A stretch of 64,000 bases of DNA from a bacterium (GTDB lineage: Bacteria > Bacillota_I > Bacilli_A > RF39 > UBA660), in assembly GCA_022779465.1 (NCBI GenBank), contig JALFTB010000001.1:3824-67823 (forward strand). Direction: 5' to 3'. A model generated the notes under the pieces. The model was given only the letters and a program-made list of their open reading frames with translations. It was not told the DNA's origin and searched no databases. Every line of letters starts with the position of its first letter. Position 1 is the first letter of the stretch. The translations under genes were made by a program, and so were the position numbers. Shown piece by piece: positions 1,772 through 63,425 of the stretch.

Positions 1772-3571
1772 CTATTTATGGTGTCTCCTCTTCTTTTTGG
1801 GTTTTAGTTTTTTTATTGCTGTTTTTGTTAATATTAATAGTATATAGATTATTAAAATTATAATTAATATAATTTTAAATATATTATACATTGTTGATAA
1901 TATGATGGTTATTATATAATTGGTATTTAATTTTTTTGATGAAGATGAATGGTCTTTTACATTATCATATTGTTTAAAGTATTTTTTCACTTTGTTTAAC
2001 CATTTTGTTTTTATAAAATTATTATCTTCTTCATTATTTAATTTTAAGTATTTTTTTACCAATTTTTGAGTTTGGTTATCAACACTATATAATGATGGGG
2101 CAATAGTTGGAGCATGTTTACTTTGGTTATTTATTTTTTCATAAACTCCAGCTATATTTAAAAGCAGATTGTCGTCTCCTTTTAGACTCATAAATTCAAT
2201 TCCATATGGTAAGTTGTCTTGATCAAAACCTAATGGCATGGTTATAGATGGATAGCCTACAGCAGGTGATGCATGAGCCGCTATATTAACAATACCACTT
2301 TTATCAACTTTTAACAATTGATTTTTGGTAGTTGGATAAATTATTGCATCTAAATCGTTGCTTTTATAGATATTATTTAAATATACATCATAGTTTGTTA
2401 TTATTGTTTTTTTATTATCTTTTAATTCATTTGAGGTTCCACAATATTTTAAATACGTATCAATGTTTGTTATTTTGCCGTTTGACTTAGCTAAATCTTC
2501 GAATGTTCTTATACTTCCAGTTGTTCCTTTTAAATAATTATTTACGGCATTACAAAACAAATATCCACTATAAGAATTGTTTACATAGTAGTTTTGAGTA
2601 TTTGTAAAATATTCATCTAAATAAACTATTTTTGCTCCATTTTTTTCTAACAAACTTATAACTTTTTTAGCCATTTTGGTAATTTCTGAATATCCTTTTT
2701 TATTTTCTGTTAAATCAGATGATTCCGATCCATCTAAAAATAAAGTTGGAACACCAATTGTAATTTCTTTTAAATTTGATAAATTTGTTTTTATTTTGGT
2801 GTTATTTGAGGACATTATATTAGTTAATATAATAGAATCATTTAAAGTTTTTGTTAACGTACCTACAGTATCTCTATTGGGATCATATGGTAAAACGCCT
2901 TGATTACTAAATAAACCATATGTAGGTCTGTAACCAACAAGATTGTTGGCAGCGGCTGGTAGTCTGACTGATGAATTGGTATCAGTTCCTAGTGCTGCTG
3001 ATGCTAATGAGGCAGCTACTGCTACTGCTGATCCTCCTGACGATCCATAAGGGCTATAATCTAAATTATAAGCATTTTTTACAGTACCATATGAACTTTT
3101 AGATGAACTAGCATAGAATGCTAATTCTGACATATTTGCTTTGGCAATTATAATAGCACCGGCATCAATTAATTTTTGAATCACATCAGCGTTTTGCTTA
3201 GGATAATTATCCTTTAAAGATTTAGTACCAGATGTAGTTGGCATACCTAGTACGTCAATATTATCTTTAACAATAATAGGAATACCGTGAATAGATGATC
3301 TTACTTTACCATTTGTTCTTTCTTTATCTAACTCCTCGGCTTGGGTTAAAGCATTTTCATTAATGGATATTATGGCATTATAGTCCTTGTAAGCTTCTAT
3401 TCTTTCTAAATAGATATTAACTAGTTGTTTACTTGTAATTATATTATTATCTAGTGCCGTAGATATTTCTTCCATACTCATGGTTGTTATATCTATTGGA
3501 GCAGTTGTTTGGGCATAAATATTTATTGGGATTGAAATTAATATTAGTAATATTAGTTTTCTAATACGCAT
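1772..3571 (-). CDS. secreted amidase-signature (GatA-like) amidase with a C-terminal membrane anchor
   Basis: It carries the amidase signature [33 protein letters not shown]. The N-terminal signal peptide is [22 protein letters not shown]-terminal hydrophobic helix is followed by a [13 protein letters not shown] tail. Confidence 0.7.
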
Positions 3572-3998
3572 CTTTAATTGCTTTCTTTAGTTCTTTTTCT
3601 TTTAATGAAGCTCTTTTATCATAATTATGTTTGCCTTTACAAACTCCAATTTTTACTTTAGCTTTATTATTTTTTAAATATACTTCTAAAGGGATTAATG
3701 TATATCCTTCTTTATCACTATCTTCTTTTAATCTTTTAATTTCATTTTTATGAAGAAGTAATTTTCTAGTTCTCCTTTCTTCGTGATTAAATCTATTACC
3801 TTCGTCATATTTTGCAATAAACATGTTTAAAAGATAAGCTTCATCATTTTTAATTTTGGCGTATGAATCTTTAATATTAGCACTACCTTTACGTAGGGAT
3901 TTGATTTCGGTTCCTGTTAATACAATTCCAGCTTCTATTTCTTTATCAATAAAATAATCATAACTTGCTTTGCGGTTTTTTATTTCCACGTTTATCAC
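3561..3998 (-). CDS. smpB: SsrA-binding protein SmpB
   Basis: The 145 aa product carries the SmpB signature ([34 protein letters not shown]). Confidence 0.9.
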
Positions 3999-11612: not shown

Positions 11613-14192
11613 ATGAAAAAAGAAAATAAAGACCTATCTTTAATAAAAAGCTTTTTTAAAAAGCATGAATATTTATTACTTACCATTATTTCATCTTTGA
11701 TAGTTATTATTACTATATTTATATTACAAGGATTAGCTCCTTTTGGTGATAAATCAATGTTAACAATAGATTTTTTTCATCAGTATGGGCCTATGCTTGG
11801 AGAACTTTATGATAGAGTTAAGAATGGTAGTAGTTTAATATATTCTTTTAATACTGGAATGGGGCTTCCATTTTTTAGAAACTTTTTTAATTATTTATCT
11901 AGTCCATTTAATATTTTGATTTTTTTGTTTAAAAGAATTCATTTATTAACATCTTATTCTATAATTATTGGACTAAAATCAATATGTTCTTGTATAACTA
12001 TGAGTATATTTTTAAAAAATAAGTTTAATAAAGATTATAAAATGTTTATTCCTATTTCATTATTATATGGGTTTTGTGCATATTTTGTGGCATATTATTG
12101 GAATATAATGTGGTTAGATGGAATGGTATTACTTCCATTAATTACGTTAGGAATTGAGTATATTATTAATAAAGAAAAACCTTTTTTGTATATTGTTAGT
12201 TTAGTAATTATGTTATTTGCAAATTATTTTATTGCTTATATGATATGTATTTTTAGTGTTTTATATTTTTTGACATATTTGTTTATTAAAACTAATAAAT
12301 TTGACTTTAAAAAAATTGCTAAGAAATGTTTAATCTTTGGAGTAGCGTCATTAATTGCTGGTGGTATATGTGCAATTTTCTTAATTCCTATGTTTAAATC
12401 TATGTCTGGAATTAGTGCTACTGGAGATGTTTGGCCTACTTCTCAATATTATGATTTTACTTTTATTGAATTTATTTATAATCATTTAAGTGGTGTTGGT
12501 AGTACTGTTTTAAAATCTGGAGTTACTACTGCACCTAATGTGTCTTGTGGAATATTATCTGTTATGTTACTATTTGCTTTTTATTTTAATTCCGACATTA
12601 AATTAAAGGTTAAATTTGCTTATACTTTATTATTATTAATTATGATTTTAAGTTTTGTATTAGCTCCTTTAGATTATATATGGCATGCTTTTCATGTACC
12701 AAATGATTTGCCTTATAGATATTCATTCTTATATAGTTTTGTACTTATTATTATTAGTGCTTATTCACTATTTAAAATTAAAGGACTTAAATCTATTTAT
12801 GGATTTGTGTGTTATGGCTTAGCATTAATATTTATTTCATTAGTTTGGTTTTTACCATTTGAAAATATTTCAAGAGATATGATTTATTTAAATTATGGAT
12901 TAAGTACTATTTTCTTTTTATTATTTGTTATTTATAAGTATTTTGGTTCTTATAAAAAAATTGTTCCTTATATATGTATTGTTACGGTAATGCTTGAATG
13001 TTGTGTAGTTTTAAATAATAATTGGGACATGGCACATGTAGCTAGTACATTTTACAGTGATTATGATTCAATGAGAAAAGGAATAGATTTTGTTAATAAA
13101 AATGATAAAGAAATGCATAGAATGGAAAGAATAGATTTATTAACTTATAATGATCCTTCTTGGTATAATTATTATGGTCAAATGACTTTTAGTTCAATGG
13201 CTTATGAAAATATGGCAGTTATAAATCATGCTTTAGGGATGCCAGGAAATGAGATTAATAGTTATTATTATAAAAGTAATACACCAATTTATGATATGTT
13301 ATTTAATGTTAAATATATAATTGGAGATATCAATGATTTTATCCATTATTCTTTATATTTTGACAGTAATGATTTAGCTATTTATAAGAGTAAATATAAT
13401 TTAGGATTTATGTTTGGTGTTGATAATAATATTAAAAATTGGAACACAAATTATGATAATCCTTTTAATAATCAAAATGATTTTGTATTAAAGAGTTCTG
13501 GTATTGATAATGTTTTAAAAGAATTAAGTATTTATAAAAAAGAATTGTATTATGAAGATGATAATCATAAAATATTTAAGTATAGTGTAAAAGGTGATTC
13601 TAATAATTTCTATTTATACTTTAATAATTATTTATGTGATTTTATGGTTATTAATGGTTCAATGTATTATAACGAAAATGAGCATGATTATGTTTATAAT
13701 AGTGATTTAACTATTTATAGTAATTCATCTTATAGTGAAAACTATATTATAGATGCCTTGGGAGAAAATAACAATTTAGAATTTTATGTTGGATATACTA
13801 ATTATTATGATGATGAAGATGTTTGGATCTATGGTTTAGATGAGAATAAATTTAACGAGGCTTATACTTATTATCTTAATAATAAAGTTAGTATTGAAGA
13901 ATTTAAGGAAGATAAGATTACTGCTTTTGGTAGTTTTAATAAAGATATGAGTGTTTTCACTTCAATACCTTATGATAAGGGATGGAATGTATATATTGAC
14001 GGAATTAAGGTTAATACTTATGAAATAAATAATACTCTACTAGGATTTGATGTTGAAGCAGGAGAACATAATATTGTGATAAAATATAAAATTCCTTATG
14101 CTTTAGTTGGTGGATGCATCTCTTTATTGTCGTTATCATTATTAGGTTTTTGGATTTATACCAATAAAAAAAGTTTAAAAAACAAATTTTAA
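11613..14192 (+). CDS. YfhO-family polytopic membrane protein (putative glycosyltransferase or glycopolymer modification)
   Basis: The 859 aa product has more than ten predicted TM helices in the N-terminal two thirds and an Asn/Tyr-rich extracellular C-terminal domain, with YfhO-like size and topology. Confidence 0.5.
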   Translation: MKKENKDLSLIKSFFKKHEYLLLTIISSLIVIITIFILQGLAPFGDKSMLTIDFFHQYGPMLGELYDRVKNGSSLIYSFNTGMGLPFFRNFFNYLSSPFNILIFLFKRIHLLTSYSIIIGLKSICSCITMSIFLKNKFNKDYKMFIPISLLYGFCAYFVAYYWNIMWLDGMVLLPLITLGIEYIINKEKPFLYIVSLVIMLFANYFIAYMICIFSVLYFLTYLFIKTNKFDFKKIAKKCLIFGVASLIAGGICAIFLIPMFKSMSGISATGDVWPTSQYYDFTFIEFIYNHLSGVGSTVLKSGVTTAPNVSCGILSVMLLFAFYFNSDIKLKVKFAYTLLLLIMILSFVLAPLDYIWHAFHVPNDLPYRYSFLYSFVLIIISAYSLFKIKGLKSIYGFVCYGLALIFISLVWFLPFENISRDMIYLNYGLSTIFFLLFVIYKYFGSYKKIVPYICIVTVMLECCVVLNNNWDMAHVASTFYSDYDSMRKGIDFVNKNDKEMHRMERIDLLTYNDPSWYNYYGQMTFSSMAYENMAVINHALGMPGNEINSYYYKSNTPIYDMLFNVKYIIGDINDFIHYSLYFDSNDLAIYKSKYNLGFMFGVDNNIKNWNTNYDNPFNNQNDFVLKSSGIDNVLKELSIYKKELYYEDDNHKIFKYSVKGDSNNFYLYFNNYLCDFMVINGSMYYNENEHDYVYNSDLTIYSNSSYSENYIIDALGENNNLEFYVGYTNYYDDEDVWIYGLDENKFNEAYTYYLNNKVSIEEFKEDKITAFGSFNKDMSVFTSIPYDKGWNVYIDGIKVNTYEINNTLLGFDVEAGEHNIVIKYKIPYALVGGCISLLSLSLLGFWIYTNKKSLKNKF

Positions 14193-15246: not shown

Positions 15247-15320
15247 TGGAGGGGCCTACCGGATTTGAACCGGTGCTCAGGGAGTTGCAGTCCCTTGCCT
15301 TACCGCTTGGCTAAAGCCCC
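15247..15320 (-). tRNA. tRNA-Cys (anticodon GCA)
   Basis: The minus-strand sequence GGGGCTTTAGCCAAGCGGTAAGGCAAGGGACTGCAACTCCCTGAGCACCGGTTCAAATCCGGTAGGCCCCTCCA folds as a cloverleaf. It has a 7 bp acceptor stem, a GTTCAAATCC T-arm, a CT-GCA-AC anticodon loop and an encoded CCA. Confidence 0.85.
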
Positions 15321-20879: not shown

Positions 20880-21237
20880 TGGTGGAGCCGAGCAGAATTG
20901 AACTGCTGTCCAAAATACTTCCATAGTACAATCTACAAGTTTAGATAATTTGTTATTTCACTAGTAGGAAGAAAACTATCTAAATTACTACTAGCTAAGC
21001 TTTAAAATTTTCGTTAAACAAACTAAGCAATCTATTTAATATAATCTACTATTATGAACCAATTTAAAACTCTGTAGATTTAGTCTTAAACCAGTGCTCC
21101 GTGCCAACTATTAGGCAAATGCTAGAGCTGTATTATAATTTGTTTTGTCAGTTATTTTAACTGTTTTGCTATTTAGGATAGCAACCACTTGCATGTAAAA
21201 CAGAATATATATTTTGTCGAAACCAAAAAACGGCCCC
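20880..21237 (-). ncRNA. ssrA: tmRNA (SsrA)
   Basis: The 5' end reads GGGGCCGTTTTTTGGTTTCGAC and the 3' end GGACAGCAGTTCAATTCTGCTCGGCTCCACCA. The acceptor stem pairs with a G3-U wobble. The T-arm is CAGCAG-UUCAAUU-CUGCUG. An internal tag reading frame reads ...DKTNYNTALAFA and ends in tandem TAA TAG. No ORF is called across this 358 nt gap. Confidence 0.85.
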
Positions 21238-22522: not shown

Positions 22523-22735
22523 TTATGATAAAAAGTTTATTATAATATCTTTACTTAAAATATCTGAGTACGAATAACTCTTTTTTTCTATACCATTAGA
22601 TACTATAAATACATGACTATAACATTCTGATATGTAGCCATAAAATATTTCATTTCTGTTTCTATTTTCTCTTGATGTAACTTTTATTTCTTGATTTAAA
22701 TGATTTCTTATATTTGTTTTAATTGATTCAATCAT
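22523..22735 (-). CDS. veg: Veg protein
   Basis: The 70 aa product shows the Veg signature (SRENRNRNEIFYGYISECYSHVFIV....SYSYSDILS). Confidence 0.8.
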   Translation of the reverse strand: MIESIKTNIRNHLNQEIKVTSRENRNRNEIFYGYISECYSHVFIVSNGIEKKSYSYSDILSKDIIINFLS

Positions 22736-23514
22736 CTTGGATACCCCACATACATAAGTCCATTACAAACAACTCCTCCCATTCCATCGGAACCATATTT
22801 GGTTTTATTTAAAAGTTCAATTAAATCTATTGTTTTCATTTTGTCGGTTAAAGCAATTGATGAAGCTATTATGGCAGGATCTAAAGCATGAATATTTACT
22901 CTTTTGGGACTAGATGCAAAATTTGCTCCACATTTAATTAATTCTTCATAATCGCTTTGACATGCACCAGCAATTATTATTAACTTGTCATGGTTTTTTT
23001 CATATTTTCTTGCTTTTTTAACTGATTCACAAAAATATTTTGAATTACGATAATTATTTAAATTTGTTTTAGAACCTTTCTTTGGATAATATGCATCATG
23101 ACCAGTTATTATGACAATGTCAGGATTACATTCTAATAAATATTTATTGATTTTATTTGGTAATTCTTCTTCACTTACAACTTTTCCAAAAGCTTTTAAA
23201 TTGTTTTGTTTATAATAATTTAGACATCTATTTAAATATTCTTCGTCACCATCGCAATGTAAAATTTTGGCTGGCATATAAAAGTATTCATTGCGATCTA
23301 AATTGTCATTATTGGTAACTTTGTATTCAAAATTATCTTTGCGATTTTCTGTATATAAAACTAAATCTTCAATCGGACTATCTGCATATAATCTGACATT
23401 TTCACCTTTTAAATAACAAACTCCATCTTTTATGTTTAAAATTTTAAATATTGTATCGTTATTATAACTTTTTCTTGTTACATAGTCGCCTTTTTTAAAG
23501 TTCATAGTTACCAC
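22732..23514 (-). CDS. yabG: sporulation-specific protease YabG
   Basis: The N-terminus FKKGDYVTRKSYNNDTIFKIL resembles the B. subtilis YabG start. It sits in the veg-yabG-ksgA synteny. Confidence 0.7.
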   Translation of the reverse strand: MVTMNFKKGDYVTRKSYNNDTIFKILNIKDGVCYLKGENVRLYADSPIEDLVLYTENRKDNFEYKVTNNDNLDRNEYFYMPAKILHCDGDEEYLNRCLNYYKQNNLKAFGKVVSEEELPNKINKYLLECNPDIVIITGHDAYYPKKGSKTNLNNYRNSKYFCESVKKARKYEKNHDKLIIIAGACQSDYEELIKCGANFASSPKRVNIHALDPAIIASSIALTDKMKTIDLIELLNKTKYGSDGMGGVVCNGLMYVGYPR

Positions 23515-27522: not shown

Positions 27523-27936
27523 TCAAGAATAATCAAAATAAGAAGATATTATTCTAGAAATTAATTTAAGAAATTTTTGATTTTCATCATTATTGTCTAT
27601 ATATATTTTAACCTTGCCAATTTCAATTGAATTCATTATTATTTCAGTTTCAATAAAATGATTACTTGGACTTATGGAAATAATCTTTTTATTTCGATCA
27701 GTTATTTCTATTCCATACTTATATATTTCATTTATATATTCCGCGATTGACTTGATGTAATTGTAATAATTTTCTAAATATGAATATTTAGATATAAGTA
27801 TTTTTGAATCGTCGGAAGTAATCATTATATTTTCATTTTCTTGTATTTTTAACTTGTGTCTTACTTCTTTAGGAATTACTATTCTTCCTAATTCATCTAT
27901 TTTTCTTATATAATTATTTGTTTTCACATATACCAC
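27523..27936 (-). CDS. SpoVT/AbrB-family transcriptional regulator (SpoVT-like by position and N-terminal domain)
   Basis: The N-terminal swapped-hairpin domain IRKIDELGRIVIPKEVRHKLKI...ILISKYS aligns with SpoVT/AbrB. It lies directly downstream of mfd. The C-terminal part is short (137 aa in total), with no clear GAF domain. Confidence 0.6.
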   Translation of the reverse strand: MVYVKTNNYIRKIDELGRIVIPKEVRHKLKIQENENIMITSDDSKILISKYSYLENYYNYIKSIAEYINEIYKYGIEITDRNKKIISISPSNHFIETEIIMNSIEIGKVKIYIDNNDENQKFLKLISRIISSYFDYS

Positions 27937-37126: not shown

Positions 37127-37136
37127 TTTACTCCTC

Positions 37137-37216
37137 AAAAAAAGCGCACATACATAGAGGCAAATATGGCTGCTTTCTTCCGAATCTGACCAGGTTATTG
37201 CGTTTGTATTGCGCAT
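37137..37216 (-). ncRNA. ffs: small (4.5S-type) signal recognition particle RNA
   Basis: The minus-strand RNA reads GCGCAAUACAAACGCAAUAACCUGGUCAGAUUCGGAAGAAAGCAGCCAUAUUUGCCUCUAUGUAUGUGCGC plus a U7 run. It contains the conserved domain IV motif (GGUCAG...GGAAG.AAGCAGCC) inside a long closing helix. A TTGAAA-N17/18-TATATT promoter lies at about 37222-37258. Confidence 0.75.
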
Positions 37217-37295
37217 ATATAATATAGCATATTTTAATTACAGATTTCAATAATTGGATTTTTACTAATTTTAAAAATTTGTATTTTTTATTTTT

Positions 37296-37905
37296 TTATT
37301 GTTTCACGTGAAACATATGTGGATTTTTTTTGTAATTAAGTACTTATATAACTAAGTAATATTTTATAGGTTAATAAATAATAATTTTTTGATTGTAATG
37401 TATGGTATACAATGTTTCACGTGAAACATTGTTGACAACTTTAATATTAGATTTGATGTGAGTTATATATATTAAGTATGCTAATTTAGTTTTCTGCAAA
37501 TTAATTTCAATAATTTGCTCTTGTAGGCAAAAAATTATATGTTTCACGTGAAACATGTGTGGAAATAATTACTAATACATAAAATTTGTAAATGTTTATT
37601 TATTTTTTTACTTAAAATTATTTCCCGGGAAATAATTTTGTGTATATGTTTCACGTGAAACATATACTATTATTAATAAATTTTCAGTTTTTATAATAAA
37701 ATTGATGAAATAACGCTATTTTAAATAATTTAATAGCTTTGCAAATTAATTTCAATAATTTGCATTAGTAATTTTACTTATGTTTCACGTGAAACATTGT
37801 GGATATCTGTTTTTTTCTATTTTTTATTCAGATTTGGTTTTTCTGCAAATTAATTTTAATAATTTGTTTGTTTTTGTTGTGGATATGTTTCACGTGAAAC
37901 ATATC
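37296..37905. repeat. parS: array of six perfect parS centromere sites (TGTTTCACGTGAAACA)
   Basis: Identical 16-mers occur at 37300-37315, 37413-37428, 37540-37555, 37647-37662, 37781-37796 and 37886-37901, spaced 102-134 bp apart. The flanks are symmetric, which extends each palindrome to 18-24 bp. Confidence 0.85.
37620..37633. promoter_or_regulatory. Noc-binding-site-like palindrome ATTTCCCGGGAAAT
   Basis: This is a 14/14 match to the B. subtilis NBS consensus, embedded between parS copies 3 and 4. It is the only CCCGGG in the region. Confidence 0.6.
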
Positions 37906-37914
37906 TGTAACTAA

Positions 37915-37945
37915 AAAAGGTAGCTTTTATGCTACCTCTTCGATT
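37915..37945 (-). terminator. gyrA rho-independent terminator (overlaps stop codon)
   Basis: The minus-strand stem GGUAGC-AUAAAA-GCUACC is followed by a U-run. Confidence 0.65.
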
Positions 37946-40500
37946 TCTTCTGGTTCGTTTAGTACTAAACTAATTGTTGATACTATTTGATTATCTTTTA
38001 AATTAATTAATCTTGTACCTTGAGTTACTCGACCTAACTGCGAAATTTGATCCAAAGGTATTCTTATAATTATTCCGTTATTAGTTATGATCATTAAGTC
38101 ATTATTTTCTTCAAATCGTTTAATTGCAGCAATATTTCCGTTCTTTTCAGTAATATTTAATGCTTTTACACCTTTACTACCACGTTTAGTCTTGCGGTAC
38201 TCACTGATATGTGTTTTTTTACCATAGCCTTTTTCAGTAACAATAATAATGTTGTCGTCTGCTTTTGCTGTTTCTAAGCCTACACATTTACCATTTTCTA
38301 AGCTAATTCCTTTAACTCCGCTTGCAGTACGTCCCATTACTCTAACTTCTTCTTCATTAAATACTGCAATTCTTCCAGTAGATGATGCCATTATAACATC
38401 GCATTCACCATCAGTCTTTTTAACTCCGATTAATTCATCATTTTCTTTTAAACTAATGCAAAGTTTTCCACTCTTTCTAATATTATCAAATTCTGCGATT
38501 CTGGTACGTTTTACTAGACCACTCTTTGTAGCAAATAATAAATATTTGCTATCATCTGATGGAGAATAACTTAACATTGATGTAATATGTTCATCCTTGT
38601 CAATTTGAAGTAAGTTAATAATTGGTATTCCTTTTGATGTTCTACCAAATTCAGGAATTTCATATCCTTTTACTCTATAAACCTTACCTTTATTCGTAAA
38701 GAATGTTAAATAATCATGTGTATTTAAATTTAGCAAGTATTCAACAAAATCTTCTTCGTTGGTTGACATTCCCTTTACACCTACACCGCCTCTATTTTGA
38801 AGTTTGTAGTTATCAACATTATTTCTCTTAATATATCCTTTATTTGTTAATGAAACTATTATGTTTTCTTGTGGGATAAGGGATTCATCTTCAATAAAGT
38901 CAATTGCAGTCATATCTATTGTTGTTCTACGATCATCAGAATATTTATTTTTAATTTCTGTTAACTCATCTTTAATTATTTGTAATACTCTTGCCTCACT
39001 AGCTAAAATATCTTTTAAATCAGCTATTATTTTTAATAATGCTGCTAATTCTTCATCAATTTTGCTTCTTTCTAAGCCGGTTAATCGTCTTAATTTTAAT
39101 TCTAAGATACTTTCTGCTTGAATTAATGATAAGTTAAATCTTTCTATTAATGTATTTTTAGCAATTTCATCAGTTTCAGCGTTTTTAATTATTCTAATTA
39201 CTTCATCGATATTATCTAAAGCAATTTTATATCCCTCTAAAATATGAACTCTATTTTCAGATTTATTTAAATCAAATCTAGTTCTTCTGATTATTACTTC
39301 TTTTTGATAATCAATATATTTAGATATAATGTCTTTTAAAGGTAATGTTTTTGGTGTTAATCCATCTAACATTAAGAACATTATACTGAAATTTGTTTGA
39401 AACTGAGTATGTTTATATAATTGATTTAATATTACTTGTGGATTTGCATCTTTTTTTAGTGTTATTGTAATTGTTAATCCATTTTTTAAGTCTGTATGAT
39501 AATCTGAGATACCATCTATTGTCTTATTATGAACTAATTCAGCAACTTTTTCTTGTAATTCTTTAGTATTTACACCATAAGGAACTTCAGTAATAACAAT
39601 ATTATTATGGCCTTTTACTTCTTCGATTCTTGCCTTACTTCTAATTATTATTGTTCCTTTTCCAGTTTCATATGCTTGTTTAATTCCTGAATTTCCAAGG
39701 ATTATACCACCAGTTGGAAAATCTGGGCCTTTGATAAAATTCATTAATCCAATAGTATCAATATCTGGATTATCTATATAAGCTATACATCCATCTATTA
39801 CTTCTCCTAGGTTATGTGGAGGAATATTTGTTGCCATACCTACGGCAATACCCATGGTACCATTTACTAATATATTGGGAAATCTTGATGGTAAAACTCT
39901 TGGTTCTTTAGTGGAATCATCAAAGTTTGGATCAAAATCTACAGTATTTTTATTAATATCTCTTAACATTTCAAGGGATATTTTTGATAATCTACCTTCT
40001 GTATAACGATATGCAGCTGCTGAGTCACCTTCGATTGTACCAAAGTTTCCGTGTCCATCAACTAGCATATATCTTTCTGCAAATTTTTGAGCTAATCTTA
40101 CCATTGCATCATAAATTGATGAGTCTCCATGTGGATGATAATGTCCCATTACGTATCCGACTGTTGTTGCAGATTTTCTATGTGGTTTATCTGGAGTATA
40201 TCCACATTCATACATAGACCATAAAATACGGCGATGTACTGGCTTTAAACCATCTCTTAGGTCTGGTAATGCACGGGAAGCAATTACGCTTACAGAATAG
40301 TCTAAAAATGATGATTTTACTTCTTCTACAATATTATTTTCTGTTATTTTATCTTTTCCAGTTAATTCAGTATCAATTAAAGAATATTCTTCATCAAATT
40401 CTTCTTCAGTATTATCAATATTTTCATCAATAATCTCAGGATTTTTATTGCTATCTAACTCTGGATTGTTAATAATATTATTTTTTTCTTCTTCTGTCAT
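37927..40500 (-). CDS. gyrA: DNA gyrase subunit A
   Basis: The 857 aa product has the catalytic Tyr region (AAYRYTEGRL) and a beta-pinwheel C-terminal domain with a GyrA box. Confidence 0.95.
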   Translation of the reverse strand: MTEEEKNNIINNPELDSNKNPEIIDENIDNTEEEFDEEYSLIDTELTGKDKITENNIVEEVKSSFLDYSVSVIASRALPDLRDGLKPVHRRILWSMYECGYTPDKPHRKSATTVGYVMGHYHPHGDSSIYDAMVRLAQKFAERYMLVDGHGNFGTIEGDSAAAYRYTEGRLSKISLEMLRDINKNTVDFDPNFDDSTKEPRVLPSRFPNILVNGTMGIAVGMATNIPPHNLGEVIDGCIAYIDNPDIDTIGLMNFIKGPDFPTGGIILGNSGIKQAYETGKGTIIIRSKARIEEVKGHNNIVITEVPYGVNTKELQEKVAELVHNKTIDGISDYHTDLKNGLTITITLKKDANPQVILNQLYKHTQFQTNFSIMFLMLDGLTPKTLPLKDIISKYIDYQKEVIIRRTRFDLNKSENRVHILEGYKIALDNIDEVIRIIKNAETDEIAKNTLIERFNLSLIQAESILELKLRRLTGLERSKIDEELAALLKIIADLKDILASEARVLQIIKDELTEIKNKYSDDRRTTIDMTAIDFIEDESLIPQENIIVSLTNKGYIKRNNVDNYKLQNRGGVGVKGMSTNEEDFVEYLLNLNTHDYLTFFTNKGKVYRVKGYEIPEFGRTSKGIPIINLLQIDKDEHITSMLSYSPSDDSKYLLFATKSGLVKRTRIAEFDNIRKSGKLCISLKENDELIGVKKTDGECDVIMASSTGRIAVFNEEEVRVMGRTASGVKGISLENGKCVGLETAKADDNIIIVTEKGYGKKTHISEYRKTKRGSKGVKALNITEKNGNIAAIKRFEENNDLMIITNNGIIIRIPLDQISQLGRVTQGTRLINLKDNQIVSTISLVLNEPEEIEEVA

Positions 40501-43629: not shown

Positions 43630-44079
43630 TTATTTACCCTTTTTTCGGTTTTTAAAAGCTGTTTCTAATGATAAAGATTTTAAATATTGATTTTGAATAA
43701 TTCTATATGAAGTATCTATTTCTATACATTCATTATTTAAAAATTCGATTATGCTTTTTTCGGATTTAGAATGAACTTTTTTGATGTTATTTACGTTGAT
43801 CCACGCACAATCTTTTAGTCTTGGTGAACAAGTTGGAAAAAATATAATGCTTTTATCTTCTTCAACTATAATTGGCGCTTTATAGTTAAAACCAGTTAAT
43901 GAATATGTGCCTTGAATTCGTCCAGAAATACTACTTCCGTAATATTTACAGTTAGAATCCATTATTTTTAGGATTTTTTCATCAACAATATAACATTCAT
44001 GGTCTTCATAAATTACAGTTTTCTTTTTTCCAATTGGTATTAATGCAAGCGTATTTTTGTTAATTTCATAATCTTTCAT
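43630..44079 (-). CDS. comK: ComK-family transcription factor
   Basis: The product aligns along its length with B. subtilis ComK. Matching segments include YEINKNTLALIPIG, NCKYYGSSISGRIQGTYSLTGFNYKAPIIVEEDKSIIFFPTCSPRLKDCAWINVNN and SYRIIQNQYLKSLSLETAFKNR. It is 149 aa, shorter at the C-terminus than ComK (192 aa). Confidence 0.8.
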   Translation of the reverse strand: MKDYEINKNTLALIPIGKKKTVIYEDHECYIVDEKILKIMDSNCKYYGSSISGRIQGTYSLTGFNYKAPIIVEEDKSIIFFPTCSPRLKDCAWINVNNIKKVHSKSEKSIIEFLNNECIEIDTSYRIIQNQYLKSLSLETAFKNRKKGK

Positions 44080-45418: not shown

Positions 45419-46789
45419 CTAATTAACAATTTTATTTTTAATTTCTTCTAATGTTTCTTTAAGTTCCATATTTGTTTTTAATTCAGTACTGATTTTTTCA
45501 TAAGCGTGTAATACAGTTGAATGATCTCGATTACCAAATTCTAATCCTATTTTAACGATTGTTTCTTCTGTTGTCATTCGGCAAAGATATATGGCAATTT
45601 GTCTAGGATAATTAATATTTGCAGTTCTTTTTTTACTTTTTAAGTCCTCTACCGTTATTTTGTAGTGGTCTGCTACTGCTTTTTGAATTCTTTGAATATC
45701 ATTTGTTATATATATTGATTTTCCTAAATAATCTTTTAAAGCTTCAACTGCAAATTCCAAGTTAATTTCTTTAGGTCCCATCATTGCTGCATATGCATAA
45801 AGTCTTGTTATAGCACCTTCTAAATGTCTTACATCGTTTTCACAATTAGATGCAATATATTCTATAACGTCGTTTTTAACTAGTCTTGCAACTTCATGAC
45901 CAGTCATTTTTGCTTTTAAAATCTTACATCTTAGTTCAAAATCTGGTGGATCAATATTAACTGTTAATCCCCATCTAAATCTTGTTAATAACCTGTCTTC
46001 TAAATATTTAAGGTCATCTGGTGATTTATCCGAACTTATAATAATTTGTTTATTTGAATCATATAATGTTGTAAAAGTGTGGAAAAATTCTTGTTGAGAT
46101 TTTGCAGCTCCTGATAGGAATTGAATATCATCTATCATTAAAATGTCGATATTTCGGTATTTTTCCTTAAAGTGATCAATTATATCATTATTATTATCAT
46201 TTTCATCTTTAATATCTTTACGATTTATTCCAATAAAATCTGAAATAAATTCTTCACTTGTTACGTATAAAACTGTTTTATTTGTATGACTTTCAATATA
46301 ATTACCGATTGCATGCATTAAATGGGTTTTACCTAGTCCACTTTTTCCGTATATAAATAATGGATTATAGATTTTTCCGGGTTGTTCTGCGACTGCAAGT
46401 GCTGCAGTTTGTGCAAATCTGTTACTATCCCCTATTACAAAGTTTTCAAAAGTATATTTTTCGTTTAAATTTGAATTTATTTTTTTATATTGTTTATCAA
46501 CTATGTTAAGATTATTGTTTATTTCTGGGCTTTCTTCCACATTTTTTTTAGTAGTAAAATTAAGATTATAATTTTCTCCTGTGATAGCAAATACAATTTC
46601 ATGAATAAAATCGTAATAATATTGATTTAAATAGTCTGACGTAAATACTGAATCTGCTTCAATATTCATTGTGATACCTTCAATAGATTTTAATTTAGTT
46701 TCTGCAAACCAGGAATTAAATGATATATCAGGTACTTTACTTTGAATAACATTTAAAACATTAGTCCATAGTTCATCATAATTCTGCAT
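45419..46789 (-). CDS. dnaA: chromosomal replication initiator DnaA
   Basis: An AAA+ core (GKSGLGKTHL) is followed by a C-terminal DnaA-box binding domain. The start is taken at the internal MQNYDELWTNVL, which has a GGGTGAGGAA RBS. The ORF-track N-terminal extension is spurious. Confidence 0.95.
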   Translation of the reverse strand: MQNYDELWTNVLNVIQSKVPDISFNSWFAETKLKSIEGITMNIEADSVFTSDYLNQYYYDFIHEIVFAITGENYNLNFTTKKNVEESPEINNNLNIVDKQYKKINSNLNEKYTFENFVIGDSNRFAQTAALAVAEQPGKIYNPLFIYGKSGLGKTHLMHAIGNYIESHTNKTVLYVTSEEFISDFIGINRKDIKDENDNNNDIIDHFKEKYRNIDILMIDDIQFLSGAAKSQQEFFHTFTTLYDSNKQIIISSDKSPDDLKYLEDRLLTRFRWGLTVNIDPPDFELRCKILKAKMTGHEVARLVKNDVIEYIASNCENDVRHLEGAITRLYAYAAMMGPKEINLEFAVEALKDYLGKSIYITNDIQRIQKAVADHYKITVEDLKSKKRTANINYPRQIAIYLCRMTTEETIVKIGLEFGNRDHSTVLHAYEKISTELKTNMELKETLEEIKNKIVN

Positions 46790-47030
46790 TTCCTCACCCA
46801 CCTTAGTTTGCTTTCTTAAGTTAATTTTAAAACAATCCTGTGGAAAAATAAAGAATAAAAATGAAAAATTTGTTTTTCCAAAGTTTTTCCACAGCTTTAT
46901 CAACAAAACTCACCCTATTTTATCGCACTAAAAACACTTTTTCAACATTTTCCACAAAATAAAATTAACATTAATTTTTGAAATCCACATTTTCCAATTT
47001 TTGTAAAAAATGTGGAAAAATATTTGGCTG
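46790..47030. promoter_or_regulatory. oriC DnaA-box cluster upstream of dnaA
   Basis: TGTGGAAAA or TTTTCCACA-type boxes lie at 46839-47, 46885-93, 46948-56, 46981-89 and 47011-19. Confidence 0.65.
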
Positions 47031-53204: not shown

Positions 53205-54407
53205 ATGGAGTCACAAGTTCAAAATATAAATATTGATTTAATTATACCAAATAGATTTCAACCACGCCTTTCTTTTGACGAAAAAGCTTTAAATGAATTA
53301 GCTGAGTCTATTAAACAACATGGTATTATTCAACCTTTAATTGTAAGGCAACTTGCTGATAAATATGAAATTATAGCTGGTGAAAGAAGATATAAAGCAG
53401 CTACTTTGGCTGGGTTATCAACTGTTCCTGTTATTGTAACTAATTTGTCTGATGCTAAGAGCGCTGAAGTTGCTCTTGTTGAAAATATTCAACGTAAAAA
53501 TTTAAGTTCAATAGAAGAAGCACTTTCATATAAGAGAAAAATAGATAAAGATAATTTAACTCAAGAACAATTAGCTAAATTATTGGGATTATCTCAATCA
53601 ACAGTTGCTAATCGTTTAAGATTGTTAAATTTAAGTAATGAAGTTCAAGATGCCTTATTAAAAGAAAAAATAAGTGAGCGTCATGCAAGAAGTTTATTAC
53701 AAATAAGTGATAAAAATAAACAAACCGAATTATTAAATCGTATAATAACTGAAAGATTAACAGTTAGACAGTTAGATGAAATAATAAAAAAAGAATTATC
53801 TTCACCTAGCACTTATGCAGAGGAAATACCTAGTAATTTAGAACAGCCTTTATCTTCAGAACCGGAAGCTGAACCAATTCCAGAACAAATTCCTTCAACT
53901 CAAATTGAAAGTTTGGATGTTTTAGGTGATGATAATACTTTAGATAATTCAAATAATATATTTGATACTGAAATAGATGCTTCAATGCCATCAGAGACTT
54001 TAGAGGAAATAGATAAAGAACCACAACATGAAGAACCTATGAGTAATATTTTAAATTTCTTACAAAGTTTTAATAATTCAGCGCCTTCACTTGATGATGA
54101 ACCAACTAATATGCAAACTTTTGATGATGATGTATTTAATGATGTTCATAGCGCTTATGATTTAATCGATGATGCAAATAAAGATCCAGATATTGTAAAT
54201 TTAGATACTGTTAATGAATCAAGTGTAACATCTGATAATCAAGTTTTAGACGATGTTGTTCCTAGAATAAAATCTGGAGATATGAGTTCATTAAAGAAAG
54301 CATATCATGATTTACAAGATGAAGCAGAAAAAGCAGGCTTTAAAATAAGCATGGAAGATTTTGATTTTGAAGATTTATATCAAATGATAATTAAAGTTGA
54401 TAAGTAA
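53205..54407 (+). CDS. ParB/Noc-family CTPase with a long acidic disordered C-terminal tail
   Basis: It has the ParB N-terminal domain with the GERRxRA CTP-binding motif (IAGERRYKAATLAGLSTVPVIV) and an HTH (GLSQSTVANRLRLL). The last 200 residues are D/E/S/P-rich low complexity. No ParA/Soj gene is adjacent. Confidence 0.75.
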   Translation: MESQVQNINIDLIIPNRFQPRLSFDEKALNELAESIKQHGIIQPLIVRQLADKYEIIAGERRYKAATLAGLSTVPVIVTNLSDAKSAEVALVENIQRKNLSSIEEALSYKRKIDKDNLTQEQLAKLLGLSQSTVANRLRLLNLSNEVQDALLKEKISERHARSLLQISDKNKQTELLNRIITERLTVRQLDEIIKKELSSPSTYAEEIPSNLEQPLSSEPEAEPIPEQIPSTQIESLDVLGDDNTLDNSNNIFDTEIDASMPSETLEEIDKEPQHEEPMSNILNFLQSFNNSAPSLDDEPTNMQTFDDDVFNDVHSAYDLIDDANKDPDIVNLDTVNESSVTSDNQVLDDVVPRIKSGDMSSLKKAYHDLQDEAEKAGFKISMEDFDFEDLYQMIIKVDK

Positions 54408-59153: not shown

Positions 59154-59666
59154 TTGAAAAAAATACTAGTTATTATAGGAGTAATATTATTTTTATTAAG
59201 CATAAATTATAATAATAAAGAAGAAGTATTTATTCCTAAAGATTCTATTAGATTTAGAATAGTAAGTAATAGTATGAATGAAGTTGATTTAAAAACTAAA
59301 CAAGAGTTAAAAAGTTATATAGAAGATTATGTTTATGATATAGTAAGTGATGCTAAAAGTAGTGAAGAAGCGGATGAATTATTGGTTAATAATTTAGAAA
59401 AAATTAGCAAACATATTAATCAATATTTGAATTCTAACAACTATAAAATAGATTACGGTATAAATTATTTTCCAAGAAAGGTATATAAAGGAGTTGTATA
59501 TGAAGAAGGTATGTATAAATCTTTAGTAATAACTTTAGGAGATGGAAAAGGTTCTAATTGGTGGTGTGTTTTATTTCCACCATTATGTTTATTAGATGAA
59601 AATGAAACAACAGCAGATGTTGATTATCAATTATATGTTGCTAGAATAATTAAAGTATTTAATTAA
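59154..59666 (+). CDS. spoIIR: stage II sporulation protein R
   Basis: A signal anchor, RFRIVSNSMNEVDLK and the near-invariant NWWCVLFPPLC motif are present. The ORF uses a TTG start. Confidence 0.7.
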   Translation: MKKILVIIGVILFLLSINYNNKEEVFIPKDSIRFRIVSNSMNEVDLKTKQELKSYIEDYVYDIVSDAKSSEEADELLVNNLEKISKHINQYLNSNNYKIDYGINYFPRKVYKGVVYEEGMYKSLVITLGDGKGSNWWCVLFPPLCLLDENETTADVDYQLYVARIIKVFN

Positions 59667-62720: not shown

Positions 62721-63425
62721 TTGTTAGGAGTTGTGTCTGCAGAAATGCCTGCTTTGTTTAATATTGAAGCATTAAAAGCGCAAGTAGTTGCTTCTAGAAG
62801 TTTTATTTTAAGTCAAAGCAATGATAGAATTCTTAATACTACAAGTGGAGCTCAAGCTTATCAAGATTTATATGAACTAAGTAATAAGTGGAATGATAAA
62901 TATTATGAATATTTATCTAAAATGCAAAAAGCAATTGAGGAAACAAAAAATGAAGTAATAAAAAGAGATAATAAAATATTAAGGACATATTATTTTGCTA
63001 TGAGTAATGGATATACTGAAAATTCTCAAACTGTTTTTAAACAAGAACTATTTGAAAGTGTAAAATCTGATGAAGGAAGAGATACTAAATATAAAATAAC
63101 TTTAACTTTAGATGAATTTAAAAATAAATTAAATGTAGGTACAGTAAACATAGGTGAAATAAAAAGAAATAATACTAATCATGTAGATTATATTATGATT
63201 AATAATAATAAATATAGTGGGATTGATTTTAGAAAAAAGCTTAATTTAAGATCAACTGATTTTAATATTGAAATAAATAATAATAATGTTGTGATTGAAA
63301 CTAATGGTTATGGACATGGGGTTGGTATGAGTCAATATGGAGCTAATGCCATGGCAAAAAAAGGTTATAATTATAAAGAAATTCTTGAATATTATTATCA
63401 AAATATTGATATTTTAAAAATATAG
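62721..63425 (+). CDS. spoIID: stage II sporulation protein D (SpoIID/LytB domain); 5' end probably extends to about 62550
   Basis: The product has SpoIID signatures (LLGVVSAEMPALFNIEALKAQVVASRS, NGYGHGVGMSQYGA). The same frame stays open upstream to 62526 and encodes a signal anchor (KKIVLLILFLIPIYISSF) with no canonical start codon. Confidence 0.7.
   Translation: MLGVVSAEMPALFNIEALKAQVVASRSFILSQSNDRILNTTSGAQAYQDLYELSNKWNDKYYEYLSKMQKAIEETKNEVIKRDNKILRTYYFAMSNGYTENSQTVFKQELFESVKSDEGRDTKYKITLTLDEFKNKLNVGTVNIGEIKRNNTNHVDYIMINNNKYSGIDFRKKLNLRSTDFNIEINNNNVVIETNGYGHGVGMSQYGANAMAKKGYNYKEILEYYYQNIDILKI

Follow-up and report, generated by a model that had tools for sequence, protein, structure and literature searches.

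A parS array between gyrA and the SRP RNA gene of an uncultured gut Bacilli bacterium, probably amplified from a DnaA box-parS module whose boxes appear vestigial in this species

The stretch of DNA analysed here, 64 kb out of a genome of about 1.1 Mb and referred to throughout as the window, covers the origin region in an uncultured 'Bacilli bacterium' from the gut, whose GC content is about 25%; near-identical GyrA is encoded on metagenome contigs of up to 1.1-1.16 Mb. The minus strand carries, in order, recR, dnaX, tadA, the small signal recognition particle (SRP) RNA gene, a spacer of 700 bp, gyrA, gyrB, recF, a comK-like gene, dnaN and dnaA, and the plus strand past the oriC box cluster carries rnpA, yidC, jag, mnmE, mnmG, rsmG and one ParB-family gene. 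The spacer between gyrA and the SRP RNA gene holds six exact copies of parS, each a 16-bp palindrome matching TGTTNCACGTGAAACA, together with 9-mers resembling DnaA boxes, an inverted repeat (IR2) and a Noc-binding site (NBS). The elements of this array, its boundaries and the oriC cluster are the following:

37129-37225, minus strand: small SRP RNA gene (Rfam, 58 bits), the downstream boundary of the array
37250-37221: SRP RNA promoter-like site, TTGAAA-18-TATATT
37244-37262, minus strand: 12-nt IR2 fragment AATTATTGAAAT, overlapping the -35 element of the SRP RNA promoter
37264-37286: degenerate IR2, before parS 1
37300-37315: parS copy 1, exact TGTTTCACGTGAAACA
37318-37326, minus strand: box-like 9-mer AAATCCACA (TGTGGATTT on the plus strand), 2 nt from parS 1
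37413-37428: parS copy 2, exact
37430-37438, minus strand: decayed box relic TGTTGACAA, 1 nt from parS 2; TGTTGATAA in strains L081-L083
37496-37518: IR2 copy 1, GCAAATTA-N7-TAATTTGC
37540-37555: parS copy 3, exact
37558-37566, minus strand: box-like 9-mer ATTTCCACA, 2 nt from parS 3
37619-37634: NBS TATTTCCCGGGAAATA, the exact 16-bp consensus (PMC7383237), 12 nt before parS 4
37639-37647, minus strand: decayed box relic TGTGTATAT, overlapping parS 4 by 1 nt
37647-37662: parS copy 4, exact, within the 26-bp palindrome GTATATGTTTCACGTGAAACATATAC (37642-37667)
37741-37763: IR2 copy 2, one breakpoint of a 105-bp strain deletion
37781-37796: parS copy 5, exact
37798-37806, minus strand: box-like 9-mer ATATCCACA, 1 nt from parS 5
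37845-37867: IR2 copy 3, with T in the loop and the last arm base lost; other breakpoint of the 105-bp strain deletion
37878-37886, minus strand: box-like 9-mer ATATCCACA, on the other side of parS 6 with a 1-nt overlap
37886-37901: parS copy 6, exact, closest to gyrA
37918-37937, minus strand: terminator hairpin of gyrA, bounding the array upstream
37927-40500, minus strand: gyrA
45419-46906, minus strand: dnaA
46839-47019: oriC DnaA-box cluster upstream of dnaA, at the GC-skew switch, with four TTTTCCACA and one AAATCCACA

The array spans about 600 bp and lies about 9 kb from the skew switch, dnaA and oriC. An earlier sequence-only reading of the window had counted six parS, which is borne out together with all of its coordinates; no further parS was found in the rest of the 64 kb, even with up to two mismatches allowed (0.03 expected). 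That reading had also described a uniform module of 100-130 bp consisting of IR2, parS and a box, which fits copies 3 and 5 only. Neighbouring parS are irregularly spaced by 105-134 bp, and the pattern recurs about every 240 bp, with two parS to a unit (240 and 241 bp from copy 1 to 3 to 5; 234 and 239 bp from copy 2 to 4 to 6). Owing to the strong divergence of the spacers, Tandem Repeats Finder reports no regular array for the window.

As the earlier reading had noted, a TGTGGAWWW 9-mer abuts four of the six parS (37318, 37558, 37798 and 37878), the last overlapping its parS. The motif occurs 24 times in the window against 7.1 expected, and the probability that at least four of six parS carry it within 3 nt is about 1-3e-11 if the copies are taken as independent, a figure that overstates the case because the parS copies are duplicated modules. 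The association goes beyond background expectation, and the resemblance of the 9-mers to the genome's own oriC boxes was likewise upheld, the 9-mer at 37318 being identical to one variant oriC box at 46981. Of the two box types in oriC the array repeats only this weakest variant, and none of its 9-mers fits the DnaA-box consensus TTWTNCACA, all having A at position 1 and matching at 7-8 of 9 positions. The two parS first taken as box-less are accompanied by decayed relics in the same geometry as the recognisable boxes, the overlap of TGTGTATAT with parS 4 repeating that of TGTGGATAT with parS 6.

The switch in GC skew, in cumulative skew and in gene orientation comes at 46-47 kb, at dnaA, where five boxes lie within 180 bp, and none of the three has an inflection at 37.5 kb, the position of the array. 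By GC skew, the replication origin is at dnaA and not at the parS array. The proposal that the array is an auxiliary or ancestral origin element, which drew on the presence of DnaA-box-like motifs in an AT-rich spacer near dnaA, is thus hardly credible: strand composition and gene orientation place the switch elsewhere, the boxes of the array are widely spaced and degenerate, and no unwinding element turned up, although no systematic search for one or for DnaA-trios was made.

One homologue search gave GyrA matches of 99-100% identity only, which were of use for strains. Variation within the species was assessed in 33 strain arrays from loci L081-L127, which yielded 25 distinct haplotypes of the region equivalent to window positions 37226-37926. 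In the spacer, which served as reference for Fisher's exact tests, 89 of 476 columns were segregating, against 5 of 96 in parS (p=0.0007), 0 of 16 in the NBS (p=0.09), 7 of 69 in IR2 (p=0.09) and 6 of 35 in the box 9-mers (p=1). The changes in the boxes fall in the TGTGGA core (37321, 37561, 37562, 37878, 37879 and 37882), and strains carry 2-4 such cores and 5-7 parS. To judge from this variation, parS and the single NBS are the constrained elements in this species, and the box half of the module looks unconstrained.

These data bear directly on the idea that the four 9-mers form a working DnaA-binding cluster, a sink or regulator similar to datA or a DnaA-box cluster (DBC) that is tied to the partition complex through weak cooperative binding of DnaA-ATP. 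Such a role would suit four same-strand boxes within 570 bp and 9 kb from oriC, one of which (AAATCCACA) is also present in the oriC cluster; relatives have ATT and ATA variants in their oriC clusters, the A at position 1 shared by all four could mark a tolerated low-affinity class, and origin-proximal box clusters in B. subtilis restrain initiation in synergy with spo0J (PMC3245932). We nevertheless regard it as unlikely, since the boxes vary among strains as the spacer does, with the TGTGGA core altered and two to four boxes left per strain, none matches the consensus, two have already decayed, the distances between them (more than 80-240 bp) are too large for a DnaA oligomer, and no ParA/Soj is encoded within the 64 kb. 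A titration locus would be a tight cluster of high-affinity boxes, whereas the array has four off-consensus boxes over 570 bp at a spacing of 80-240 bp, and the DnaA-titrating cluster that had been suggested is therefore doubtful here. The off-consensus copies, the two relics and the spacer-like variation together argue for weak or vestigial DnaA sites and not for a titration cluster or a second origin; the boxes of the window are probably relics.

Related species, represented by one genome each, were scanned with GyrA, which gave 80 loci of 22 kb (L001-L080; 68-75% identity). In 74 of these 80 species parS is found directly after gyrA, 69 of the 74 having 2-12 copies; the remainder of the 22-kb loci is free of parS, and the SRP RNA gene follows the array in all six relatives checked. 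Since parS occupies the same place between gyrA and the SRP RNA gene in 74 of 80 species, the array is conserved throughout the group as a centromere-like feature.

Counting the window, 13 genomes have a DnaA box on the side of parS that faces gyrA, at a distance fixed to the base pair. Strict TTWTCCACA boxes fall into two classes: one with a start-to-start offset of -16, leaving a gap of 7 nt (19 sites and one at -15, in eight species: L010, L014, L019, L027, L028, L031, L032 and L049), and one with an offset of -9 to -11, in which box and parS abut with a gap of 1-2 nt (eight sites in five species), the class to which the window belongs. For the core TCCACA, 20 sites were counted at -13 (eight species) and 11 at -7/-8 (five relatives and the window), compared with an expectation of about 0.115 per offset and strand among 339 parS sites. 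The relatives' boxes at fixed offsets are all on the gyrA strand, and those at the window's offsets satisfy the DnaA-box consensus (TTATCCACA or TTTTCCACA); modules can be written as ATATCCACAA-parS for one of those in the window, TTATCCACAA-parS in L003 and L062, and TTATCCACA-N7-parS in L019. The motif in the arrays is that of the oriC boxes of the same genomes, in whose oriC clusters the non-consensus variants are most often ATT and ATA. In the GyrA tree the 7-nt class forms one clade, while the abutting class is spread over at least three other lineages and the window.

Among 18 non-redundant modules of the eight-species clade, only TTWTCCACA(G) and parS carry information content, the upstream flank having about 0 bits. 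This confinement identifies a selected binding site as opposed to a recent duplication, and the alignment indicates purifying selection on the boxes of this clade. It also weighs against hitch-hiking, by which the 9-mers would never have been functional and a chance TGTGGA beside one parS would have been copied by tandem duplication. That the window copies are paralogous modules and that variation within the species looks neutral would agree with such a history, but consensus 9-mers at two fixed offsets in 12 other species from at least four GyrA lineages, and the retention of all nine box positions between flanks of about 0 bits, make it very improbable; for the lineage as a whole these sequences already contradict it. 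Because relatives carry consensus boxes at the same place, the historical link between DnaA box and parS is real, and in this historical sense the connection drawn by the sequence-only reading stands. The boxes are linked specifically to parS: their being general companions of the NBS was ruled out, as only three composites in L067 have a box among 100 NBS, and so was their being part of an extended parS palindrome, as the abutting-class sites are mostly without a matching right arm.

The explanation we consider likely, on these sequence comparisons, is that the centromere array arose by amplification of an ancestral module of DnaA box and parS, which is selected in relatives and vestigial or weak here. 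The spacer between gyrA and the SRP RNA gene would serve as the centromere-like ParB loading array of the chromosome, built by repeated unequal-crossover duplication of a module of one parS and an abutting DnaA box. In relatives, the TTWTCCACA boxes would most likely keep DnaA next to the sites of ParB nucleation, and in the species of the window the box half of the module would be decaying.

Several observations weigh against this explanation. About 60 related species have an array but no box adjacent to it; the box must therefore be dispensable for array function, an accessory. Gaps of 7 nt and of 1-2 nt place the box on different helical faces relative to ParB, which argues against one precise protein-protein geometry. 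In the eight-species clade a G at +10 follows 21 of 26 array boxes and only 4 of 21 boxes of the oriC clusters; this G may belong to the extended parS palindrome or may signal a different reader. For the abutting class, one genome per species yields no estimate of constraint. Finally, weak DnaA-ATP sites can function despite drift, so that neutral-looking variation is no proof of lost function, and the strain sample behind it is modest and drawn from short-read assemblies, which can collapse or break the array. Contigs that end in the array or have runs of N there (L089, L090, L095, L100, L106, L109 and L110) show that it breaks such assemblies.

The orientation of the boxes suggests a further possibility, namely that DnaA bound beside parS is a barrier which stops sliding ParB-CTP clamps, so that they stay inside the array and do not reach gyrA or the SRP RNA promoter. 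Boxes keep to a single side and strand of parS throughout, and inverted boxes occur at array edges, so that arrays are bracketed by boxes: in the eight-species clade the distance from the last parS to ATACTGTGGAAAA is about 33 nt, and that from ATACTGTGGAAAA to the SRP RNA downstream about 50 nt (L019 at 4047, L028, L032, L031, L014 and L027), and in another clade (L054, L058, L060 and L062, near 12475-12491) TGTGGATAA stands 36 nt before the first parS. Proteins bound to DNA are known to act as roadblocks to ParB sliding (PMC7053999, PMC9242446), but ParB is also able to bypass roadblocks (PMC9242446). Geometry is the whole of the argument for a barrier, boxes are missing from most species, and in the window the boxes are degenerate and the one at 37878 is on the opposite side of its parS; we consider this reading improbable.

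The NBS adds a third element to the array. The copy in the window has no second in the 64 kb and is the same in all 25 strain haplotypes. An NBS is found near parS in 15 arrays, that of the window among them, and about 31 of 100 NBS (up to one mismatch, in 1.55 Mb) fall within arrays. NBS and parS are interleaved in relatives including L042, L055 and L057; in L008 (12457-13362) a 117-bp unit containing one parS and one NBS recurs regularly, six times in all, and the composites of L067 (12668-13943) consist of an NBS, 1 nt, TTTTCCACA, 1 nt and parS. The candidate reader of the NBS is encoded in the window:

53205-54407, plus strand: ParB-family gene, 400 aa, next to rsmG, the only member of its family in the window

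Aligned to the structures of Noc and Spo0J, this protein has Q, R, N and R at the four specificity positions. This corresponds to the NBS type, defined by Q173, K/R at 179 or 184, and R201 (Jalal et al., PMC7383237). It scored 197 bits against Noc and 178 bits against Spo0J in the comparison with the structures, and 277 bits against the Noc model TIGR04285, below the cut-off of 315 bits. It starts three residues before the stretch aligned to Noc residue 26 and has no N-terminal membrane-targeting helix of the Noc kind, and the 12 cluster representatives nearest to it agree in this respect, 11 of them with short N-termini; it contains an acidic linker of about 140 aa. Among the 150 nearest 50%-identity cluster representatives (227-821 aa), 147 are likewise Q-K/R-x-R. 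No second ParB was found by tblastn in the window or in the 22-kb loci of relatives, no ParA by Pfam among the open reading frames of the window, and no parS-specific ParB of the R173/G201 type within the 64 kb. The parts of the ParA/ParB-DnaA route known from Bacillus, which the sequence-only reading had invoked, are thus not visible here.

The fixed spacing of the three sites also allows for a more ambitious interpretation, in which the centromere of this order of uncultured gut Bacilli, where the region seen shows no ParA, would be a hard-wired platform for ParB, the Noc-type protein and DnaA, with DnaA as a structural or regulatory part of the partition complex. We hold this to be unlikely. 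If it is true, occlusion or release of DnaA by ParB, or gating of ParB-clamp spreading by DnaA, would couple initiation to segregation without Soj.

IR2 (GCAAATTAATTTYAATAATTTG) bears on the duplication dynamics of the array. The repeat has arms of 8 bp and a spacer of 7 nt, starts 40-44 nt before parS 3, 5 and 6, as had been described, and occurs in the 64 kb only at 37496, 37741 and 37845 (0.12 expected at up to three mismatches). One strain deletion of 105 bp spans exactly the distance from IR2 copy 2 to IR2 copy 3. Comparison with relatives, proposed in order to find conserved sub-motifs, gave a divided answer: parS and, in some lineages, the DnaA box are kept, and IR2 is species-specific, being absent from the 80 relatives at up to two arm mismatches, which rules out its retention there. 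A metagenome scan returned it only in the array context among the contigs of this species. A dispersed repeat or mobile element can therefore be dismissed, IR2 being confined to the array in the window, in the strains and in these contigs. IR2 is demonstrably a species-specific, array-confined homology substrate for the gain and loss of modules, and marks recombination breakpoints.

Other roles of IR2 were considered. On the minus strand it reads GCAAATTATTGAAATTAATTTGC, and AATTATTGAAAT, including the -35 hexamer TTGAAA, is common to IR2 and the SRP RNA promoter; in copies 1 and 2, TAAATT follows after 16-17 nt. The resulting TTGAAA-16/17-TAAATT has a promoter score of 9/12, and such sites are not enriched (15 vs 9 +/- 3 in shuffles), so that a role as promoter or operator, suggested by the motif, is conjecture. 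A known RNA was ruled out, the SRP RNA being the only Rfam match in 36-39 kb. There was no convincing match to the consensus sequences of CodY, Fur, ComK, Spo0A, LexA and dif, and the 12/13 match to the IHF consensus is unremarkable for AT-rich DNA. The other recurrent inverted repeats with 8-bp arms in relatives' arrays are mainly gyrA terminators and a symmetric parS variant. This variant, TGTTCCACGTGGAACA, is present beside the canonical site in L012, L038, L043, L047 (three copies), L050 and L074, and L008 uses mostly the parS variant TGTTTCACGTGGAACA. In the NBS-rich array of L042 (12640-13900), several NBS are preceded by a repeated inverted repeat of its own (similar to TTACCAATTTTATAAAATTGGTAA), which may correspond to IR2. 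Seven contigs of an unrelated organism with a GC content of 44% (L094, L096, L098, L099, L101, L102 and L103) contain, in a conserved intergenic context, a 22-mer that is identical to IR2 copy 3; this is probably a coincidence.

Two features of the parS sites themselves were observed across the window and its relatives (L001-L080). Some copies lie within perfect palindromes that reach 30 bp or more (e.g. L019 at 3159, 3534, 3674 and 3840). The outer arms differ among copies yet remain complementary, with 36 distinct 5-nt arms, many of them closing with G...C; an extension of the palindrome by at least 4 bp is seen in 40.5% of 227 exact parS, compared with 6.7% when flanks are permuted. Perfection by template switching, or selection for a hairpin or cruciform, could be responsible. 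In addition, the first parS of several relatives lies 0-10 nt from the gyrA stop codon (L019 at 2905, L049 at 12434, L032 at 12444 and L014 at 12457), and since this is upstream of the gyrA terminator hairpin it should be transcribed within the 3' untranslated region of gyrA.

Some further features of the window lie outside the array. A ComK-family gene (43630-44079, minus strand; Pfam E=4e-37) is situated between recF and dnaN in the core origin operon. Despite a genome of this size there is a set of sporulation-type genes, namely a yabG peptidase, an AbrB/SpoVT-like gene, spoIIR and a spoIID-like gene (22732-23514, 27523-27936, 59154-59666 and 62721-63425). A transfer-messenger RNA gene (20880-21237, minus strand) encodes the tag DKTNYNTALAFA, with smpB at 3561-3998, and a tRNA-Cys gene is found at 15247-15320 on the minus strand.

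The interleaving of parS and DnaA boxes outside oriC, which the earlier reading had believed undescribed, has precedents in the Caulobacter parS region and in the cisII and cisMP repeats of Deinococcus. In Caulobacter, DnaA binds boxes in the parS region, according to a review (PMC6399470) that cites Mera, Kalogeraki and Shapiro (2014). As in Caulobacter crescentus, DnaA boxes inside a parS region a few kb from the origin would let the initiator and ParB share a locus. Caulobacter differs in having few parS, segregation driven by ParA, and DnaA binding shown experimentally, whereas the array described here is a dense tandem of parS with boxes at fixed 1-7-nt spacing that are degenerate in this species, and no ParA is visible. 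The cisII and cisMP repeats of Deinococcus radiodurans interact with both DnaA and ParB (PMC7671480). They resemble the array as repeats, next to partition genes, that are reported to engage both proteins, but they belong to secondary replicons, combine origin and centromere, and have other repeat sequences.

In B. subtilis, DnaA-box clusters outside oriC are origin-proximal and interact genetically with spo0J (Okumura et al. 2012, PMC3245932). They share with the array the presence of DnaA boxes near but outside oriC in a Firmicute-type origin region. Like E. coli datA, they are tight groups of several strong boxes that are not interleaved with parS, whereas the window has one box per parS, 80-240 bp apart and weak in this species. 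Among known arrays of ParB sites, sopC of plasmid F is a tandem array that repeats regularly every 43 bp, and parS clusters on the chromosomes of Streptomyces, Myxococcus and Corynebacterium are spread over many kb. The array shares with these the provision of many ParB sites for one partition complex and a copy number that changes by unequal crossing-over, and differs from them in having 5-7 perfect canonical parS in about 600 bp of a single intergenic spacer at irregular 105-134-bp spacing. The exact 16-bp NBS and an rsmG-adjacent ParB-family protein with Noc-type specificity residues recall the Noc-NBS nucleoid occlusion system of B. subtilis (PMC7383237, PMC8429893). There, however, the NBS are scattered and not interleaved with parS, and the protein of the window departs from Noc in its missing membrane-targeting helix and its 140-aa acidic linker. 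No paper on RF39 parS arrays of this kind was found. DnaA boxes at a centromere are already known; what is new is a tandem array in which box, parS and NBS are fused at spacings fixed to the base pair.

For the annotation of reduced gut Bacilli, the finding means that the spacer between gyrA and the SRP RNA gene is a centromere, variable in copy number and liable to break short-read assemblies. The window itself calls for caution, as the pattern that is of interest is lineage-wide and the local copy is largely vestigial in appearance. The fused modules of DnaA box, parS and NBS in relatives (e.g. L019, L003 and L067) are defined substrates of 40-50 bp for the study of co-binding, competition and clamp blocking by DnaA, ParB and the Noc-like protein. 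Through them, the lineage addresses the question of how replication initiation is coupled to origin segregation in bacteria without ParA/Soj.

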